A stretch of 6,988 bases of DNA from Escherichia coli (GTDB taxonomy: Bacteria; Pseudomonadota; Gammaproteobacteria; Enterobacterales; Enterobacteriaceae), in the NCBI RefSeq assembly GCF_024298765.1, contig NZ_CP101214.1; one strand, 5' to 3'. This document shows positions 1 through 6,988 of the stretch, piece after piece; position 1 is the first letter of the stretch, and the number at the start of each line of letters is the position of its first letter. The notes beneath the pieces were generated by a model. The model had not been told where the DNA came from, did not search any database, and was given only the letters and a program-made list of their open reading frames with translations. Position numbers and translations under genes: made by a program.

Positions 1-378
1 GAACGCAGTAAGACTGGTCAGGGAGTAAGTGAGTATGACAGAGCTGGAAATGCACTTACTGAACGCCTTAGAGCAATTGCAGCAGGACTATACGCAGCGG
101 CTGAAAGACTGGGAGAGCGCCTTCACGGATTTGCAGCATATGTTCGAGCTGACACGACAGGAGAACGGGCAACTGAGGGAACAGTGCGACGACTTGAGTC
201 AGCAGGTGCAGAGATTAGCCGGGCAGGTGGACCACTTGAGTCGGTTATTTATCACGAACAGCAGATAAGGGATGAACAGGAAAGGCAGGCACGCCTGGAA
301 CGGGAGCGTGCGCGGTCCTGGCATGAAGAGCAGGAACGGGAAGCACGGGTATGGCGTGGCCCGTCAATAGGGATGTGA
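1..378 (+). CDS. mbeA: 3' portion of the MbeA/MobA-family relaxase gene (5'-truncated at the window edge; contiguous with 5768-6988 if the replicon is circular)
   Basis: Frame 1 is open from position 1 to TGA at 376-378 (126 codons) with no start codon needed. The window ends at 6988 exactly on an mbeA codon boundary, so 5768..6988 plus 1..378 would form one uninterrupted ORF of about 532 codons. The tail is Arg/Glu-rich (...ERERARSWHEEQEREARVWRGPSIGM). Confidence 0.55.
   Translation, partial: ERSKTGQGVSEYDRAGNALTERLRAIAAGLYAAAERLGERLHGFAAYVRADTTGERATEGTVRRLESAGAEISRAGGPLESVIYHEQQIRDEQERQARLERERARSWHEEQEREARVWRGPSIGM
35..268 (+). CDS. mbeD: MbeD/MobD-family small mobilisation protein (coiled-coil), nested in another frame within the 3' end of mbeA
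   Basis: ATG at 35 (in-frame GTG at 29), 77 aa, MTELEMHLLNALEQLQQDYTQRLKDWESAFTDLQ..., a heptad-rich helical protein. Its position inside the relaxase 3' region matches the ColE1 mob arrangement as I recall it. Family assignment is from memory, not a search. Confidence 0.6.
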   Translation: MTELEMHLLNALEQLQQDYTQRLKDWESAFTDLQHMFELTRQENGQLREQCDDLSQQVQRLAGQVDHLSRLFITNSR

Positions 379-1295: not shown

Positions 1296-1574
1296 GTGAA
1301 AAAATGTGTGCCAGTCCTGCTTTTTAGTGTTCTTTCTGCTTCGGTTGCCAGTCATGCGGACAGCAATGTTTTTCAACAAAAGGCCGAGAAGACAAAAAAC
1401 GGCATTGTTGCGGATGTTAATGCCAGACAGAAAATGTTCAGTAACAGACTGAAGATACAACTTCAGATCGATGAGTTGAGAGCAGAGCTGGCTGGCACCA
1501 GAGATGCCCAAAAAAGAGAGGATTTGCGTAAAAAACTGGAGTCTCTGGAGCGGCAAAAGAAATCCTTACGCTGA
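1296..1574 (+). CDS. Small Sec-secreted, highly charged coiled-coil protein of unknown function (92 aa precursor)
   Basis: GTG start at 1296 with AGGA 8 nt upstream. N-terminus MKKCVPVLLFSVLSASVASHA-DS is a typical signal peptide (KK n-region, hydrophobic core, S-H-A cleavage motif). Mature part is Lys/Glu/Arg/Gln-rich and predicted helical. TGA at 1572-1574. Confidence 0.5.
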   Translation: MKKCVPVLLFSVLSASVASHADSNVFQQKAEKTKNGIVADVNARQKMFSNRLKIQLQIDELRAELAGTRDAQKREDLRKKLESLERQKKSLR

Positions 1575-1856
1575 TGGGGGCGTATTTTCCCCGGTTTCTT
1601 CCATAACCTTTTTACCGTTCAGATATTTACGGGCGAGGCGAATGCGTCTTGCCTGGTATACCGCCGAGTAAGCCTGGGTGGGATTCACACCATTACTGAT
1701 TTCACTGACCACATGACGCTGATCAGCCAGTGTCAGCGTGTAAACCTGTTTCTGGATGAGGTCACGGGCTTTGTCATGCTCATATCCGGCAGCAACAAGG
1801 GTGTCGAGAAGTCGTTTGTCTGTTTTGTTCAGTTTATGGCGGGGTGATTTGCTCAC
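1566..1856 (-). CDS. Small basic protein with a putative helix-turn-helix (candidate DNA-binding regulator), unknown function
   Basis: Minus-strand ORF. Best start is GTG at 1856 with GGAG 6 nt upstream (the track's longer ORF starts at an in-frame TTG at 1883). 96 aa. The segment HVVSEISNGVNPTQAYSAVYQARRIRLARKY looks like helix-turn-helix. Converges on the 1296-1574 gene with a 9-bp overlap. Confidence 0.5.
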   Translation of the reverse strand: MSKSPRHKLNKTDKRLLDTLVAAGYEHDKARDLIQKQVYTLTLADQRHVVSEISNGVNPTQAYSAVYQARRIRLARKYLNGKKVMEETGENTPPSA

Positions 1857-2095: not shown

Positions 2096-3742
2096 ATGGC
2101 TAAAGAACTAAGTGGATATGGACCAACTGCTGGTGAGTCTATGGGGGGAACAGGGGCGAATCTGAATCAGCAAGGTGGAAATAATAATAGTAATAGTGGG
2201 GTTCACTGGGGTGGTGGCTCTGGGCATGGTAATAATGGTGGTCAGGGAAATTCAAATTCATCTGGTTCTACATCAACTGTGATGAAAACCGGTGAGTCAT
2301 ATCTGACTCCGTGGGGTGATGTTGTCATTAATAATGATGGCCTTCCGGTGATGAATGGTATTGTTATGACAGAAGAGAATTCAACTCTGGTTGATAATCC
2401 ATTTGGAGGGGTCTCCAGAGTTCTTAATTCTTTAATTAGTGATATGCCATCACTTTTTGCAGAAAGCTCAGGAAATAACAACAATAACACTGCTTCAGTT
2501 AATACTGCACCAACGAATGCTCAGGTCAGTGATATGGATAAGAGTTCGAAGGTGGTGGGTAATGTAATTAATGAAAAACAAAAGCAGAAGAATAAAATTG
2601 CTACACAGATTAGTGAAAAACAGAAGAAAATCGAGGAGATGAAAAAAGTATTCAAGCATCATTCTTATCATGGTATCACTGATCTTGAGAGGGATGTTGA
2701 TGAGTTGCAAAAAAAATCAAATCAGCTTGATGCAGATATTAGCAAACTTAATTCTTATAAAAATACATTGCAAAGTAAAATTGGTGATGTGAATAAACAG
2801 AAGGAAGCTGAAGAAAAGGTTCGTGAAAATGCAGAGGTCGCTGAACATGAAACTCTTAATGAAGAGAAACAGGCGGTGGCGGAAGCAGAGAAGCGTTTAG
2901 CTGAGGCGAAAGCTGAACTGGCGAAGGCTGAAAGTGATGTACAGAGTAAGCAAGCTACTGTTTCCAGAGTTGCAGGAGAGCTTGAAAACGCTCAGAAGAG
3001 TGTTGACGTGAAGGTCACCGGATTTCCGGGATGGCGTGACGTTCAGAAAAAACTACAGCGTCAGCTTGAAGCTAAGCAGGCTGAGTACTCCGCAGTTGAA
3101 AATGAACTTAAGAATGCTGTTAGTTTCAGGGATGGTAAGGCCGCTGAGGTTAAAGAGGCAGAGCAGAAATTAAAAGAAGCTCAGGATGCTCTTGAAAAGA
3201 GCCAGATAAAAGATGCTGTTGATACTATGGTTGGATTTTATCAATATATAACCGAACAATATGGAGAAAAATACGCAAAAATTGCTCAGGATTTAGCGGA
3301 AAAGTCTAAAGGAAAGAAAATTCAAGGTGTTGATGAAGCTCTGGCAGCATTTGAAAAGTATAAGAATGTACTGGATAAGAAATTCAGTAAGGTTGATCGG
3401 GATGCTATTTTTAATGCGTTAGAGTCTGTTAATTATGATGAGTTATCTAAGAATTTAACGAAGATATCAAAGTCGCTTAAAATCACCAGTCGAGTATCTT
3501 TTCTATATGATGTTGGTTCTGATTTTAAAAATGCAATAGAAACTGGTAACTGGCGACCTTTGTTTGTCACGCTGGAGAAAAGTGCGGTCGATGTAGGTGT
3601 GGCAAAAATTGTGGCATTAATGTTTAGTTTTATTGTTGGTGTGCCTCTTGGTTTCTGGGGGATTGCAATTGTCACAGGTATTGTTTCTTCTTACATAGGG
3701 GATGATGAGTTGAGCAAACTTAATGAGTTGTTAGGGATTTAA
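2096..3742 (+). CDS. cka: Pore-forming colicin, most likely colicin K (548 aa)
   Basis: 548-aa ORF with a Gly/Asn/Ser-rich N-terminal domain (typical of Tol-dependent colicin translocation domains), a long charged coiled-coil central region, and a C-terminal domain with a hydrophobic helical hairpin ([35 protein letters not shown]) typical of pore-forming colicins. Length and N-terminus [15 protein letters not shown]... match my recollection of colicin K. SOS promoter upstream, immunity and lysis genes downstream. Confidence 0.85.
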
Positions 3743-4029
3743 TTTCTCTTTAGAGTGTAATATATGAAACTTGGCAATCCTACTGGGATTGCCATTAATA
3801 AATAAAACAATGCAGATAACTTGCATAAGTACCAGGGTTCTTTTTTTAACTTTGTATTTTCTTTGATATATCTAGATATGGTTAATTTAGAGTATGGATA
3901 TAGCAATACATGTATTGATGATATAAATATAAATAACAAAGGAGTGTTATCATTCTCGTTAAATATTAAAATAAGAATCCATGGTATAAGTGATTCAGGT
4001 AAATTATGTAGGTAGTATTTTAAATGCAT
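3739..4029 (-). CDS. cki: Colicin immunity protein (integral membrane, 96 aa), convergent with the colicin gene
   Basis: Minus-strand ORF immediately downstream of and opposite to the colicin gene, the arrangement typical of pore-forming colicin immunity genes. Very hydrophobic protein with several predicted TM segments ([35 protein letters not shown]). Its stop codon overlaps the colicin stop at TTAA 3739-3742. Confidence 0.85.
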
Positions 4030-4058: not shown

Positions 4059-4190
4059 ATGAAAATAATAATTTTTCTAATTACAATATTATTCTTGTCA
4101 GGATGTCAAGCAAACTATATTCGTGATGTACAAGGAGGAACCGTTGCACCATCTTCGTCTTCTGAACTGACGGGGATCGCGGTTCAGTAG
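4059..4190 (+). CDS. ckl: Colicin lysis (bacteriocin release) lipoprotein, 43 aa
   Basis: ATG at 4059, TAG at 4188-4190; not in the ORF track because it is short. [43 protein letters not shown] has a signal peptide with an L-S-G-C lipobox and the conserved mature region of colicin lysis proteins. Last gene of the colicin operon. Confidence 0.85.
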
Positions 4191-4249: not shown

Positions 4250-4352
4250 ACGAAAAAACCGCCTGGGGAGGCGGTTTAGTCGAAGGTTAAGTCAGTTGGG
4301 GACTGCTTAACCGGGTAACTGGCTTTAGTGGAGCACAGATACCAAATGCTGT
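4250..4352 (-). ncRNA. RNA I antisense copy-number control RNA (about 100 nt)
   Basis: Minus-strand promoter: -35 TTGAAG (complement of 4383-4388), 18-bp spacer, -10 TACACT (complement of 4359-4364), start near 4352 (ACAGCAUUUGG...). 3' end has a hairpin, AACCGCCT / AGGCGGTT at 4257-4276, followed on the minus strand by a U-run. Fully complementary to the 5' end of RNA II. Confidence 0.8.
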
Positions 4353-4358
4353 CCTTCC

Positions 4359-4388
4359 AGTGTAGCCGCTATAAGGCTTCAACTTCAA
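4359..4388 (-). promoter_or_regulatory. RNA I promoter
   Basis: TTGAAG -35 and TACACT -10 on the minus strand with an 18-bp spacer, arranged as in pBR322 RNA I. Confidence 0.7.
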
Positions 4389-4784
4389 GAGTTCTGCGTA
4401 TCTAAATCCACTATCCAGTTACCAATGGCTGCTGCCAGTGGCGTTAAGTCGTGTCTTACCGGGTTGGACTCAAGACGATAGTTACCGGATAAGGCGCAGC
4501 GGTCGGGCTGAACGGGGGGTTCGTGCACACAGCCCAGCTTGGAGCGAACGACCTACACCGAACTGAGATACCAACAGCGTGAGCTATGAGAAAGCGCCAC
4601 GCTTCCCAAAGGGAGAAAGGCGGACAGGTATCCGGTAAGCGGCAGGGTCGGAACAGGAGAGCGCACGAGGGAGCCACCAGGGGGAAACGCCTGGTATCTT
4701 TAAGTCCTGTCGGGTTTCGCCACCTCTGACTTGAGCGTCGGTTTTTGTGATGCTCGTCAGGGGGGCGGAGCCTATGGAAAAACG

Positions 4785-5430: not shown

Positions 5431-5778
5431 ATGATACCGGTGAAACGCGAAAGGATGCTCACGATACGGGTCACGGATGAGGAACATGCGCGGCTGCTGG
5501 CACGTTGTGAGGGAAAACAACTTGCGTCATGGATGCGTAAGGTCTGCCTGGGGGCACCGCCATCGAAAACGTCAGGTCTTCCGACACTGGCACCGCCGCT
5601 GTTGCGCCAGTTCGCTTCGGTCGGCAATAACCTGAATCAGATAGCCCGGAAGATAAACAGCGGACAGTGGTCGGGGCATGACCGGGTTCATGTGGTGGCT
5701 GCACTGATGGCCATCGGACGTGAACTGAGTGAGCTGAGGGATGAGGTCCGTAAACAGGGAGAACGGGATGATAGTTAA
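5431..5778 (+). CDS. mbeC: MbeC/MobC-family mobilisation accessory protein (likely ribbon-helix-helix)
   Basis: ATG at 5431 has GGAGG 6 nt upstream; a second in-frame ATG at 5455 (MLTIRVTDEEHARLLARCEGKQLASWMRK...) would give 107 aa. N-terminus matches the MbeC remnant I recall in pBR322. Divergent from rom; its stop region overlaps the mbeA start. Confidence 0.8.
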   Translation: MIPVKRERMLTIRVTDEEHARLLARCEGKQLASWMRKVCLGAPPSKTSGLPTLAPPLLRQFASVGNNLNQIARKINSGQWSGHDRVHVVAALMAIGRELSELRDEVRKQGERDDS

Positions 5779-6988
5779 GTTTCATGCCAGGGGAAAAGGC
5801 GGTGGCAGTGGTCCGGTTGATTACCTGCTGGGCCGGGAGCGTAACCGGGAAGGGGCGAGAGTTCTGCGGGGTGCTCCCGAAGAGGTGCGGGAACTCATCG
5901 ATGCCACGCCGTTTGCGAAAAAATACACCTCGGGGGTTCTGTCTTTTGCAGAGCAGACCCTGCCACCGGGAGAGCGTGAAAGGGTGATGGAGAGCTTTGA
6001 GCGGGTACTGATGCCCGGTCTTGAAAAAAATCAGTACAGCATCCTGTGGGTGGAGCACCAGGACAAGGGGCGTCTTGAGCTGAATTTTGTCATCCCGAAT
6101 ATGGAGCTGGCGAGCGGAAAACGGCTCCAGCCCTATTACGACCGAGCAGACCGTCCGCGAATCAATGCCTGGCAGACACTGGTGAATCACCATTACGGGC
6201 TGCACGACCCGAACGCACCGGAGAACAGGCGGACACTTGTCACCCCGAATAATCTGCCGAAAGCGAAACAGGAGGCCGCAGAAGCGATTACGAGGGGACT
6301 GGAGGCTCTTTACCATGCCGGAGCACTAAAAACGCGTCAGGATGTCACTGAGGCGCTTACAGCGGCAGGTTTTGAGGTTGTGAGGACAACCAGGAGCAGT
6401 ATCAGTATCGCCGACCCGGAGGGTGGGCGTAATCTCAGGCTGAAAGGGGCGCTGTATGAGCAATCTTTTACAAATGGGGACAGACTTCGAGAAGAAACTG
6501 AAAGAGCGTGCCGTCTCTACAGAGAACATGCTGAACAGCGAGTTCAGGAAGCTCGAAGCGTCTGTAGACAGGGAACTGAACTTAAACGGGCAGAAAATCA
6601 GAGACGCTATCAGCGCACACACAGCAGCGGTGAAAGAACAACTGGAGACGCTGAACAGTGCCGTGAACGCGCAGTTCAGCGCCACAGAGAACGAACTGGC
6701 CCGGCGGCAGGAAGAGCTGCTCTGGAAGCTGGTCAAAGGGCGGATACTGTACCCGTCGCTGACGGCGCTTTGCGTCACGGGCGGGATTTTTCTGGCGTCA
6801 TGGGGGCTGATTCAGTGGCAGGAAAGCCGGATTGCGGCGAACATCCTGGCTATCAGGGACCAGGAAGAGACGCTGGCGAAACTCCGGGAAAAAACATGGG
6901 GTGTGACGTATCACGAGGGCAGGAACGGGAAATTTCTGGTGTTGCCGTCCGGGGTGAAGGGGGAAAACAACTGGACGGTGGAGAAGAA
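5768..6988 (+). CDS. mbeA: MbeA/MobA-family relaxase, 5' portion (ORF runs off the window end)
   Basis: ATG at 5768 overlapping the end of mbeC. N-terminus MIVKFHARGKGGGSGPVDYLLGRERNREGARVLRGAPEEV is typical of ColE1-family (MOB HEN-type) relaxases. No stop in frame through 6988 (407 codons), so it is absent from the ORF track. Confidence 0.9.
   Translation, partial: MIVKFHARGKGGGSGPVDYLLGRERNREGARVLRGAPEEVRELIDATPFAKKYTSGVLSFAEQTLPPGERERVMESFERVLMPGLEKNQYSILWVEHQDKGRLELNFVIPNMELASGKRLQPYYDRADRPRINAWQTLVNHHYGLHDPNAPENRRTLVTPNNLPKAKQEAAEAITRGLEALYHAGALKTRQDVTEALTAAGFEVVRTTRSSISIADPEGGRNLRLKGALYEQSFTNGDRLREETERACRLYREHAEQRVQEARSVCRQGTELKRAENQRRYQRTHSSGERTTGDAEQCRERAVQRHRERTGPAAGRAALEAGQRADTVPVADGALRHGRDFSGVMGADSVAGKPDCGEHPGYQGPGRDAGETPGKNMGCDVSRGQEREISGVAVRGEGGKQLDGGEE
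6456..6988 (+). CDS. mbeB: MbeB/MobB-family mobilisation protein, nested in an alternate frame within mbeA (3' end beyond the window edge)
   Basis: ATG at 6456 (alternative in-frame ATG at 6474). MSNLLQMGTDFEKKLKERAVSTENMLNSEFRKLEASVDRELNLNGQKIRDAI..., with a predicted TM segment (ILYPSLTALCVTGGIFLASWGLI). Open to the window end. If the replicon is circular the frame would stop at window positions 26-28, just before mbeD. Confidence 0.65.
   Translation, partial: MSNLLQMGTDFEKKLKERAVSTENMLNSEFRKLEASVDRELNLNGQKIRDAISAHTAAVKEQLETLNSAVNAQFSATENELARRQEELLWKLVKGRILYPSLTALCVTGGIFLASWGLIQWQESRIAANILAIRDQEETLAKLREKTWGVTYHEGRNGKFLVLPSGVKGENNWTVEK

Follow-up and report, generated by a model that had tools for sequence, protein, structure and literature searches.

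The stretch of DNA analysed here (the window, 6,988 nucleotides) carries a mobilization operon that we assign with high confidence to the ColE1 type (MOB-HEN, or MOBP5), in which mbeC is followed by mbeA, and the +1 frame of mbeA holds the nested genes mbeB and mbeD. Three proteins are encoded with the use of about 800 nt that code in two frames, and selection holds both of these frames free of stop codons. Along this overlap the amino-acid constraint is divided between the two frames rather than doubled, while frame integrity is constrained everywhere. Judging from sequence evolution, MbeA, MbeB and MbeD are all presumably translated. Nesting of mbeB and mbeD within mbeA is the long-known layout of ColE1 mobilization regions and as such is ordinary.

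The window is a whole circular plasmid of the pColK type, opened within mbeA. It matches many plasmid records of 6,988 bp at 99.9%, and 300 nt across the junction from 6988 to 1 are found exactly in NZ_CP120553.1, a plasmid differing from the window at only 6 positions. Identical plasmids are typed as 'mobilizable' by MOB-suite in PLSDB. An Rfam scan of the window gave RNAI as its sole match; by analogy with pSNC3-Kan, a position between the replication origin and rop is predicted for the cognate oriT (bom/nic site).

All the genes of the operon lie on the plus strand. The product of mbeC (5455-5778) is a MobC/NikA-like relaxosome accessory protein of 107 aa (Pfam MobC, 46.9 bits; NikA-like, 34.4 bits), with the RefSeq CDS WP_001444404.1 at the equivalent position. 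The gene is directly upstream of mbeA and overlaps its start by 11 nt; a ribbon-helix-helix MobC/MbeC accessory gene that adjoins and overlaps the relaxase start is a trait of the ColE1 type. The relaxase gene itself begins with the ATG at 5768, where a sequence-only reading had placed it, and its first 407 codons (5768-6988) are open to the window end. It continues in frame over the circular junction with codons 408-532 and a TGA at 376-378 (1-378), so that the whole gene (5768-6988 plus 1-378) encodes 532 aa. The same reading had the window boundary cut through the nested region, and indeed both mbeA and mbeB run across the junction.

MbeA is a MOB-HEN relaxase as this family is defined (PMC12857230). 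Its catalytic Tyr19 (5822-5824) stands in the motif I context PVDY19LLG, and motif III reads WVEH97QDKGRLE104LN106F, with HEN in place of the three-His motif (H97, 6056-6058; E104, 6077-6079; N106, 6083-6085); all four residues are invariant in our 17-sequence alignment. The protein matches NCBIfam NF047848 (relax_MbeA_E1) over residues 1-511 with 717.4 bits, the cut-off being 500, and Pfam Relaxase PF03432 with 26.8 bits (cut-off 24.6). According to AF2 models, which were built on alignments of 17 sequences only, residues 1-285 (5768-6622) form a folded region of high pLDDT, of which residues 230-285 are a helical hairpin. Residues 286-428 (from 6623 over the junction to 1-63) are predicted to be a disordered linker (pLDDT <50), rich in Gly, Arg, Ala and Glu. 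A C-terminal helical module (64-375) follows, with predicted helices 419-458 and 463-525 (pLDDT 56-85), and ends in RGPSIGM. The corresponding G-P-S/R-G-M-S motif recurs at the C-terminus in 15/17 relatives, spanning four orders, and is missing in 2/17. Foldseek searches of the PDB with the N-terminal domain gave the R1162 MobA relaxase 2NS6 as top match, with a probability of 1.00 but an E value of 1.9e-3 and a TM score of 0.45, and the MobM relaxase 4LVL with a TM score of 0.50. Sequence searches of the PDB with MbeA and MbeB found no relative.

The mbeB gene had been proposed to start at 6456 inside mbeA. This ATG is confirmed, and the gene (6456-6988 plus 1-28; 186 aa) agrees with the RefSeq MbeB CDS of 561 nt. 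Its 5' part (6456-6988) comprises codons 1-177 plus 2 nt, and its 3' end (1-28) completes codon 178 and adds codons 179-186 and the TAA at 26-28. MbeB matches Pfam MbeB_N, in the 5' part, with 84 bits. The initiation region (6443-6458) holds a Shine-Dalgarno-like AAAGGGG at 6443-6449 before the ATG at 6456-6458, and the last upstream stop of the +1 frame is the TGA at 6441-6443. The pattern aaRGGRG-N5-6-tATGag is kept in 17/17 plasmids, and this ribosome-binding site and ATG are made from the relaxase codons for R-L-K-G-x-x-Y-E, the last invariant relaxase motif (R224, L225, G227, Y230 and E231 are invariant). A hydrophobic, TM-like segment at residues 97-119 (6744-6812) reaches a Kyte-Doolittle maximum of 1.69; this maximum is 1.69-3.11 across 17/17 homologues despite about 15% identity, and the relaxase frame of the same DNA has no such segment. 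The AF2 model of MbeB shows a helix at 2-146 and a beta domain at 151-185, with a mean pLDDT of 77.

The coordinates 35-268 previously given for mbeD inside the 3' part of mbeA hold and agree with the RefSeq MbeD CDS. Its 77-aa product, a coiled-coil-like mobilization/exclusion protein, matches Pfam MbeD_MobD PF04899 (118.5 bits) and NCBIfam plas_excl_MbeD NF033829 (121 bits, cut-off 60). The mbeB TAA is followed, after 6 nt, by the mbeD ATG, a geometry of translational coupling, and the mbeD start lies 0-6 nt past the mbeB stop in 16/17 relatives. A putative Shine-Dalgarno sequence for mbeD, GGGAG (21-25), lies inside the 3' end of mbeB. That mbeB and mbeD share a single frame is a detail that the sequence-only reading left unstated. 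Its assignment to the gene-within-gene organisation of the ColE1 type is borne out by the relax_MbeA_E1, MbeB_N and MbeD_MobD matches, by the MobC/NikA-like gene upstream and by the literature. As for MbeD homologues outside a nested setting, a tblastn search of 72,556 plasmids gave 3,030 matches, which were essentially the same small mobilizable plasmids, with no separate context among the matches listed.

Frame integrity was compared over 17 intact plasmids from four orders of Gammaproteobacteria, 14 of them closer (relaxase domain identity down to about 60%) and 3 distant. Loss of the internal frames in relatives had been named as grounds against the doubly coding layout. The mbeB and mbeD frames are open in 17/17, at conserved positions and with no premature stops. 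In the window, the third frame contains 37 stops against 0 in the mbeA frame. Chance expectations came from 2000 synonymous resamples that held the protein of the other frame fixed. With MbeB and MbeD fixed, the mbeA frame of the window should carry 8.2 + 2.7 stops by chance but has 0, zero being reached in 0/2000 and 2.7% of resamples, respectively; with MbeA fixed, the expectation for the +1 frame is 4.7 stops and the observed count is 1 (1.7% of resamples). The 14 closer plasmids have 0 relaxase-frame stops against 5-8 (mbeB) plus 2-4 (mbeD) expected, and the 3 distant ones 0 against 13-24. Over all plasmids, stops number 0 in the relaxase frame, with about 7-24 expected, and 1 in the +1 frame, with 2-11 expected. 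The AT-rich pB1000 and pALWED1.8 likewise keep a stop-free relaxase frame (0/2000 resamples).

Amino-acid constraint follows a different pattern. The sequence-only reading had expected codon-position conservation to show both frames constrained, which stands for frame integrity but not for amino acids. Differences per site at codon positions 1/2/3 are 0.06/0.03/0.34 in the non-overlapped relaxase domain, a classic wobble excess, and this pattern is lost in the overlaps, where they are flat or shifted (0.18/0.16/0.12 and 0.27/0.13/0.19). We estimated omega from six sequence pairs by a simple counting method. Over MbeA 230-285, omega_A is 0.51 (p 0.004) against a non-significant omega_B of 0.76; thus, the folded MbeA segment dominates over the MbeB N-terminus. 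MbeA 286-428 is about neutral (omega_A 1.10), whereas the same DNA, as mbeB codons 56-186, encodes the constrained TM-like helix and small beta domain of MbeB (omega_B 0.54, p 5e-6). Over mbeD codons 1-40, omega_D is 0.36 (p 2.5e-5) against an omega_A of 0.85, the mbeD N-terminus dominating over MbeA residues of about 420-460. After a transition/transversion split the zone directions are unchanged, but only some strata stay significant. In the C-terminal module of MbeA, omega_A is 0.85-0.95 in the mbeD zone, not individually significant, and pN/pS of the tail is 0.60, compared with 0.15 in the relaxase domain. Since amino-acid constraint is weak there, the case that this module is needed rests mainly on stop avoidance and the short end motif. 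Codon usage of the +1 frame is host-like in 11/13 plasmids and the linker composition is GNN-rich; a codon-usage test of the relative age of the frames was clear in GC-rich plasmids and weakly reversed in two AT-rich ones.

Could the real MbeA protein be only its N-terminal ~285 residues, the relaxase frame downstream having no protein function? The omega_A of about 1.1 and pLDDT below 50 of residues 286-428 would fit, as would the non-significant constraint on the C-terminal module, the partial relaxase of the RefSeq annotation and the truncated relaxases found beside intact mbeB and mbeD in plasmids L006 and L009. However, the downstream frame is free of stops in 17/17 plasmids, the AT-rich ones included, the C-terminal end motif recurs over four orders, and the NCBIfam MbeA model extends to residue 511. 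The frameshifts of L006 and L009 are 1-nt indels in G-runs, possibly sequencing errors, and the L009 relaxase frame is still open past the break, so that this break is recent or a G-run error; we consider these cases uninformative as proof of a dispensable C-terminal half. Pseudogene annotations of this kind are moreover called erroneous in NAR 2024, and we judge this reading very improbable. Even less probable is that the relaxase frame stays open for the sake of ribosome traffic, which would protect the mRNA or tune internal initiation of mbeB and mbeD, and not for its product. The linker is indeed unconstrained in sequence yet strictly without stops, and the mbeB start sits within translated relaxase codons. 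Against this, mbeB and mbeD have initiation signals of their own, the 38-224 nt that follow mbeD stay open as well, with the recurring motif at their end, and the pN/pS of the tail is below 1; direct evidence for such a role was not found in this analysis.

The opposite reading, that the +1 ORFs arise because this alternative frame is rich in GC and poor in stops, and that MbeB and MbeD have no function as proteins, seems to us the least credible of all. In single GC-rich plasmids (L008, L011-L015), +1 openness is only mildly unlikely given MbeA (P 0.17-0.33), and the apparent conservation of MbeB_N can be explained in part by the constraint on MbeA 230-285. Chance ORFs do arise in this frame: a third nested +1 ORF at 5784-5987 (67 aa) is open in some relatives, lacks its ATG in several and is absent in others, and was rejected. 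Nevertheless, in 17/17 plasmids the only stop of the +1 frame falls at one and the same position (P<=5e-4 in the three distant or AT-richer ones), and the omega of this frame falls to 0.54 and 0.36 where the relaxase frame is neutral. The ribosome-binding site and ATG, the stop-start coupling and the TM-grade hydrophobic segment are all conserved, an ordered MbeB fold is predicted, codons are host-like, and both MbeB and MbeD are treated as mobilization proteins in the literature.

Under the ColE1-type explanation, the N-terminal nuclease of MbeA would have to stay joined to the C-terminal helical module with its G-P-S/R-G-M-S end, and the relaxase frame would thereby have to stay open. This module possibly docks to the coupling protein of a helper plasmid or serves translocation. 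MbeB would be an accessory protein that is anchored in the membrane and belongs to the relaxosome, and MbeD would act in mobilization/entry exclusion as a coiled-coil protein; they would be made from the mbeA mRNA, probably by internal initiation and by coupling, respectively. The odd composition of the linker may follow passively from the wobble positions of mbeB and mbeD, which are rich in GC. It is tempting to propose, though we hold it to be rather doubtful, that the C-terminal half of HEN-family relaxases is a read-through extension overprinted on an older mobB-mobD pair, with residues ~286-428 as a passenger tether whose only selected property is the lack of stops. In that case the tether sequence may be free (omega ~1), its Gly/Arg/Ala/Glu composition being set by mbeB/mbeD wobble. 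The C-terminal helices and the end motif could be a signal for helper coupling proteins. The layout would be ancestral to the ColE1-like mob modules found in Enterobacterales, Aeromonadales, Pasteurellales and Moraxellales, whose nested genes often lack annotation.

The ColE1-type operon described here holds little new biology, and the practical value of the analysis is in annotation. RefSeq annotates mbeA as a partial pseudogene, in a record to which the MbeA of the window is identical. Judged by the NCBIfam model the protein is of full length, and we discard true pseudogenisation; the call is an annotation artefact of a kind noted in the literature before (classed as erroneous in NAR 2024), and one published study discarded 487 such calls. 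Plasmids such as pB1000 and pALWED1.8 carry the equivalent nested ORFs without annotation. Automatic pipelines flag a relaxase that is intact as partial and a pseudogene, or leave nested genes out, and mobilizable plasmids and plasmid pseudogenes can be miscounted as a result. Two antisense ORFs over mbeA (5471-6316, 281 aa; 6326-6778, 150 aa) were also rejected: their boundaries change from each relative to the next, and comparable ORFs are present in every antisense frame, so we take them for by-products of composition. The overlap is a clean small example of frame sharing: where one protein is folded, the protein in the other frame is disordered and evolves freely. Mutants that affect one frame only could be designed on this basis to dissect MbeB, MbeD and the relaxase C-terminus.

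Among the closest known systems is pColK-K235 (NC_006881, 8,318 bp), which shares its colicin K, immunity and lysis genes with the window and has a mob region 99.6% identical; the window plasmid is 1.3 kb shorter. The nested layout is documented for ColE1-type plasmids (PMC5935869, PMC9282650, PMC6118388), a passage of PMC3447787 credits it for ColE1 to Boyd et al. 1989, and PMC11229322 gives further support to a ColE1-type explanation. ColE1 has the same gene order, mbeC-mbeA with a single alternative frame for the nested mbeB and mbeD, and shares Tyr19, the HEN motif and the Pfam/NCBIfam families; the ColE1-type records L007 and L010 align throughout. Compared with L010, the relaxase domain is about 85% identical, the C-terminal half of MbeA about 43%, MbeB 46% and MbeD 61%. 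In the pColK lineage MbeA has 532 aa instead of 517 and MbeB 186 instead of 172, and mbeD starts with ATG in the window and with GTG in the ColE1 type. RSF1010/R1162 (MOBQ) also has a small accessory gene, mobB, in another frame of mobA/repB downstream of the nuclease domain (PMC2200642), and the R1162 MobA relaxase fold may be related, 2NS6 being the top Foldseek match. However, MOBQ relaxases have the canonical His motif, RSF1010/R1162 has one nested gene where the window has two, and the RSF1010 relaxase runs on into a primase domain, unlike that of the window. Pfam/NCBIfam scans detected no similarity of MbeB to R1162 MobB, and MbeA, MbeB and MbeD matched ColE1-type families only. The likeness to RSF1010/R1162 is one of organisation and not of membership.

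The locus is a ColE1 mob region, opened inside its relaxase gene. mbeA starts at ATG 5768 (+), remains open to 6988 (407 codons) and, resuming in frame at nt 1, ends with a TGA at 376-378, encoding 532 aa. mbeB (+) runs from ATG 6456 across the same junction to TAA 26-28 (186 aa), and mbeD occupies 35-268 (+, 77 aa). Both lie in the +1 frame of mbeA, separated by the mbeB TAA and six bases. This frame contains nine stops across the first 690 nt of mbeA; where the DNA is doubly coding, its sole stops are the mbeB and mbeD terminators. In the third frame there are 37 stops. MbeA residues 1-511 match NCBIfam relax_MbeA_E1 (717 bits, cut-off 500), MbeB matches Pfam MbeB_N (84 bits), and MbeD matches both Pfam MbeD_MobD (118 bits) and NCBIfam plas_excl_MbeD (121 bits). 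The sequence-only reading had placed mbeB from 6456 and mbeD at 35-268 in alternate frames inside the relaxase gene, as a ColE1 gene-within-gene organisation split by the window boundary. All its coordinates are correct, mbeA and mbeB both continue from the window end to its start, and family scans and published ColE1-like layouts agree with the interpretation. The observation is confirmed and its ColE1-type interpretation is supported.

The window is a complete circular plasmid of 6,988 nt, linearised within the relaxase gene. The 300-nt junction joining its end to its start has an exact match in NZ_CP120553.1 (pB1172_6988, unrelated to pB1000), which differs from the window at only 6 positions, the sole difference in mbeA being synonymous. 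By megablast, window 5200-6988 matches numerous plasmids whose records are exactly 6,988 bp long at 99.9% identity, and pColK-K235 at 99.6%. The window plasmid has the colicin K operon (cka 2096-3742; cki 3739-4029, minus strand; lysis gene 4059-4190), yet it is 1.3 kb shorter than the classic pColK-K235 (NC_006881, 8,318 bp). Outside the mob region, the genes for colicin K, its immunity and lysis are joined by RNAI, rop and a gene for an Exc2 lipoprotein. E. coli and Salmonella have identical 6,988-bp plasmids, and Shigella near-identical ones of 6,987-6,989 bp, from humans, pigs and cattle. RNAI lies at 4250-4350 (-), near a 47-aa ORF (4385-4528, -) that RefSeq names 'replication initiation protein'. 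Apparently located inside the RNAII/origin region of the ColE1-type replicon, this ORF looks like a spurious gene call. Two convergent 'hypothetical protein' genes, at 1296-1574 (+) and 1566-1856 (-), overlap by 9 nt, and the product of the former has a signal-peptide-like N-terminus (MKKCVPVLLFSVLSASVASHA).

Conservation of both frames was assessed in 19 related mob regions from a plasmid collection, belonging to Escherichia, Salmonella, Klebsiella, Enterobacter, Citrobacter, Cronobacter, Erwinia, Serratia, Aeromonas, Haemophilus and Acinetobacter. Across the 14 closer plasmids, identity in the relaxase domain ranges from 95% to ~60%, and whole-protein identity falls to 31% in the most distant relatives. 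An open relaxase ORF (458-604 aa), an mbeB-like +1-frame ORF with the same relative start and, directly after it in the same frame, an mbeD-like ORF are present in the window and in each of the 16 intact relatives. Internal frames unconserved or stopped in relatives, which the sequence-only reading had named as evidence against nested genes, were found in none of the 16. Chance expectation was obtained by synonymous-codon resampling with the proteins of one frame fixed. With MbeB and MbeD fixed, the 14 closer plasmids were each expected to have 5-8 plus 2-4 relaxase-frame stops, and the three distant plasmids, of which two are AT-rich, 13-24. None was seen in either group, that is, 0 relaxase-frame stops in the overlap in 17/17 plasmids. 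With the relaxase protein fixed, 2-11 +1-frame stops were expected and exactly one, the mbeB terminator, is present in 17/17. This second test is weak for single GC-rich plasmids (P up to 0.33), and gives P≤5×10⁻⁴ for the three distant ones. Single-base indels in G-runs (e.g. GGGGGG to GGGGG) break the relaxase frame of two further mob regions, L009 (Erwinia p2_B09_3) at ~1455 and L006 (an E. coli NDM1 plasmid) at ~703 and ~1281. In both, mbeB and mbeD are intact and the relaxase frame past the breaks is still open; the breaks are probably sequencing or assembly errors, or very recent slippage.

Constraint along the overlap is a mosaic between frames. Comparing the window with the related mob region L004, differences per site at mbeA positions 1/2/3 are 0.06/0.03/0.34 in the non-overlapped relaxase domain, 0.18/0.16/0.12 in the mbeB overlap and 0.27/0.13/0.19 in the mbeD overlap. 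Under this codon-position check, proposed by the sequence-only reading, the mbeA wobble signature is gone in the overlaps, and the excess is now at mbeA position 1, where mbeB and mbeD have their wobble base; further pairs behave similarly. To estimate ω, we grouped sites according to what a change does in either reading frame, using Wei-Zhang-style counting on six independent close pairs. For the overlap as a whole, ω of the relaxase frame is ≈0.85-0.89 and that of mbeB and mbeD ≈0.5; pN/pS in the relaxase domain is 0.15. By zone, relaxase and +1-frame ω are 0.51 (p=0.004) and 0.76 (ns) over mbeB codons 1-55 (MbeA 230-285), 1.10 (ns) and 0.54 (p=5×10⁻⁶) over mbeB codons 56-186 (MbeA 286-415), 0.85 (ns) and 0.36 (p=2.5×10⁻⁵) over mbeD codons 1-40, and 0.95 (ns) and 0.69 (p=0.06) over mbeD codons 41-77. 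Transition and transversion strata give the same directions with lower power. The claim of constraint on doubly coding sequence thus holds for stop avoidance, both frames being kept open in 17/17, but amino-acid constraint is split by zone. Among the 17 sequences, invariant MbeA residues extend to Y230, E231, F234, Y251 and R258, and MbeB has three invariant positions only. Because of these residues and the zone ω values, the 'conserved MbeB N-terminal region' may partly be a shadow of relaxase constraint.

Predicted structures match this zoning of ω. For MbeA, AlphaFold2 on a 17-sequence alignment gives a model with high confidence at 1-285, including helices 234-280 within the overlap, pLDDT under 50 at 286-428, and two long helices at 419-525 (pLDDT 56-85). 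Compared with the PDB, this model comes closest to the minimal relaxase of R1162 MobA (2NS6; probability 1.00, TM 0.45). MbeB is predicted to be ordered (mean pLDDT 77), with a long helix (2-146) and a four-stranded β domain (151-185), and therefore its folded part would overlie the disordered part of MbeA. All 17 MbeB homologues, with identity down to ~15%, have one hydrophobic segment over Kyte-Doolittle 1.6 (1.69-3.11); the relaxase-frame reading of the same DNA reaches at most 0.93. The MbeA linker (286-428) is composed of G 19%, R 11%, A 11%, E 10%, D 7% and V 6%, a composition consistent with linker codons whose first bases double as the GC-rich wobble bases of mbeB and mbeD. In the linker zone, the +1 frame resembles the plasmid at large in codon use (mean r 0.56, GC3 0.75-0.84) and the relaxase frame does not (r 0.13, GC3 0.32-0.45). 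Plasmid-like +1-frame use was seen in 11/13 plasmids, two AT-rich ones giving a weak opposite signal. A stop at any point in the linker would detach the C-terminal helices from the nuclease, together with an end motif that recurs just before the relaxase stop in 15/17 plasmids from four orders (window 340-375; C-termini in L004-L022, the related mob regions). Most Enterobacterales carry the form G-P-S-[LMI]; in Haemophilus, Acinetobacter and Salmonella p14-7355.1 the motif is R-G-M-S. Docking or translocation is a possible role. Keeping this C-terminal module attached may be what holds the relaxase frame open despite its drifting sequence, and we suggest that the module could serve relaxosome or coupling-protein contacts.

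Initiation signals are also embedded in the relaxase frame. The Shine-Dalgarno-like AAAGGGG (6443-6449) and the ATG of mbeB are made of codons for the invariant relaxase motif R-L-K-G-x-x-Y-E, and aaRGGRG-N5-6-tATGag is kept in 17/17 plasmids. mbeD starts 0-6 nt past the mbeB stop in 16/17, often with GGAG in the final mbeB codons, a geometry typical of translational coupling, which may operate here. Upstream, the start of mbeA overlaps the end of the MobC/NikA-like gene mbeC (5455-5778, +), detected by family scan.

Annotation of these regions is often incomplete. RefSeq/PGAP calls the intact 532-aa mbeA a 318-nt 'incomplete, missing C-terminus' pseudogene (window 5768-6085, NZ_CP120553.1 1161-1478). 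We reject this call, the ORF being full length against relax_MbeA_E1; 487 such calls in ColE1-like plasmids have been identified as errors (NAR 2024, PMC11229322). Related plasmids mostly have no relaxase in their PLSDB gene tables. In four other plasmids the full relaxase is annotated and the nested genes are not: pB1000 (1056-1733 of mob region L021), pALWED1.8 (L022, 2082-3125), p14-7355.1 (L020, 2312-2941) and the OXA-232 plasmid pRIVM_C017002_6 (L019, 2660-3370). All four contain back-to-back +1-frame ORFs, MbeB-like (with one hydrophobic segment) and MbeD-like, and both frames are non-randomly stop-free. Pfam MbeB_N matches 3/4 first ORFs (54-78 bits) and MbeD_MobD 1/4 second ORFs (73 bits). 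Nesting therefore reaches Pasteurellales and Moraxellales plasmids. Other ORFs over mbeA were discarded: a 67-aa +1-frame ORF (5784-5987, +) is due to chance, being open in some relatives with an unconserved start codon and absent in others, and the antisense ORFs 5471-6316 (-, 281 aa) and 6326-6778 (-, 150 aa) are composition by-products whose boundaries are conserved in no relative.

Since the nested arrangement has long been known, its interest is low. Our results add the partition of constraint between frames, a disordered neutral tether, a conserved initiation context and phylogenetic breadth including unannotated cases; drawn from a small sample and predicted structures, these are refinements, not discoveries. 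In ColE1-like plasmids, mobB and mobD are described as 'entirely overlapped' by, or 'internally encoded' in, mobA (PMC5935869; PMC9282650; PMC6118388), and for ColE1 the reference given is Boyd et al. 1989 (cited in PMC3447787). MbeB is regarded as a relaxosome component and MbeD as a putative entry-exclusion protein, and neither is considered essential for mobilization (PMC5935869); the HEN relaxase family of MbeA is defined in PMC12857230. Outside this family, the closest organisational analogue is RSF1010/R1162, where mobB lies inside mobA/repB in a different frame (PMC2200642).
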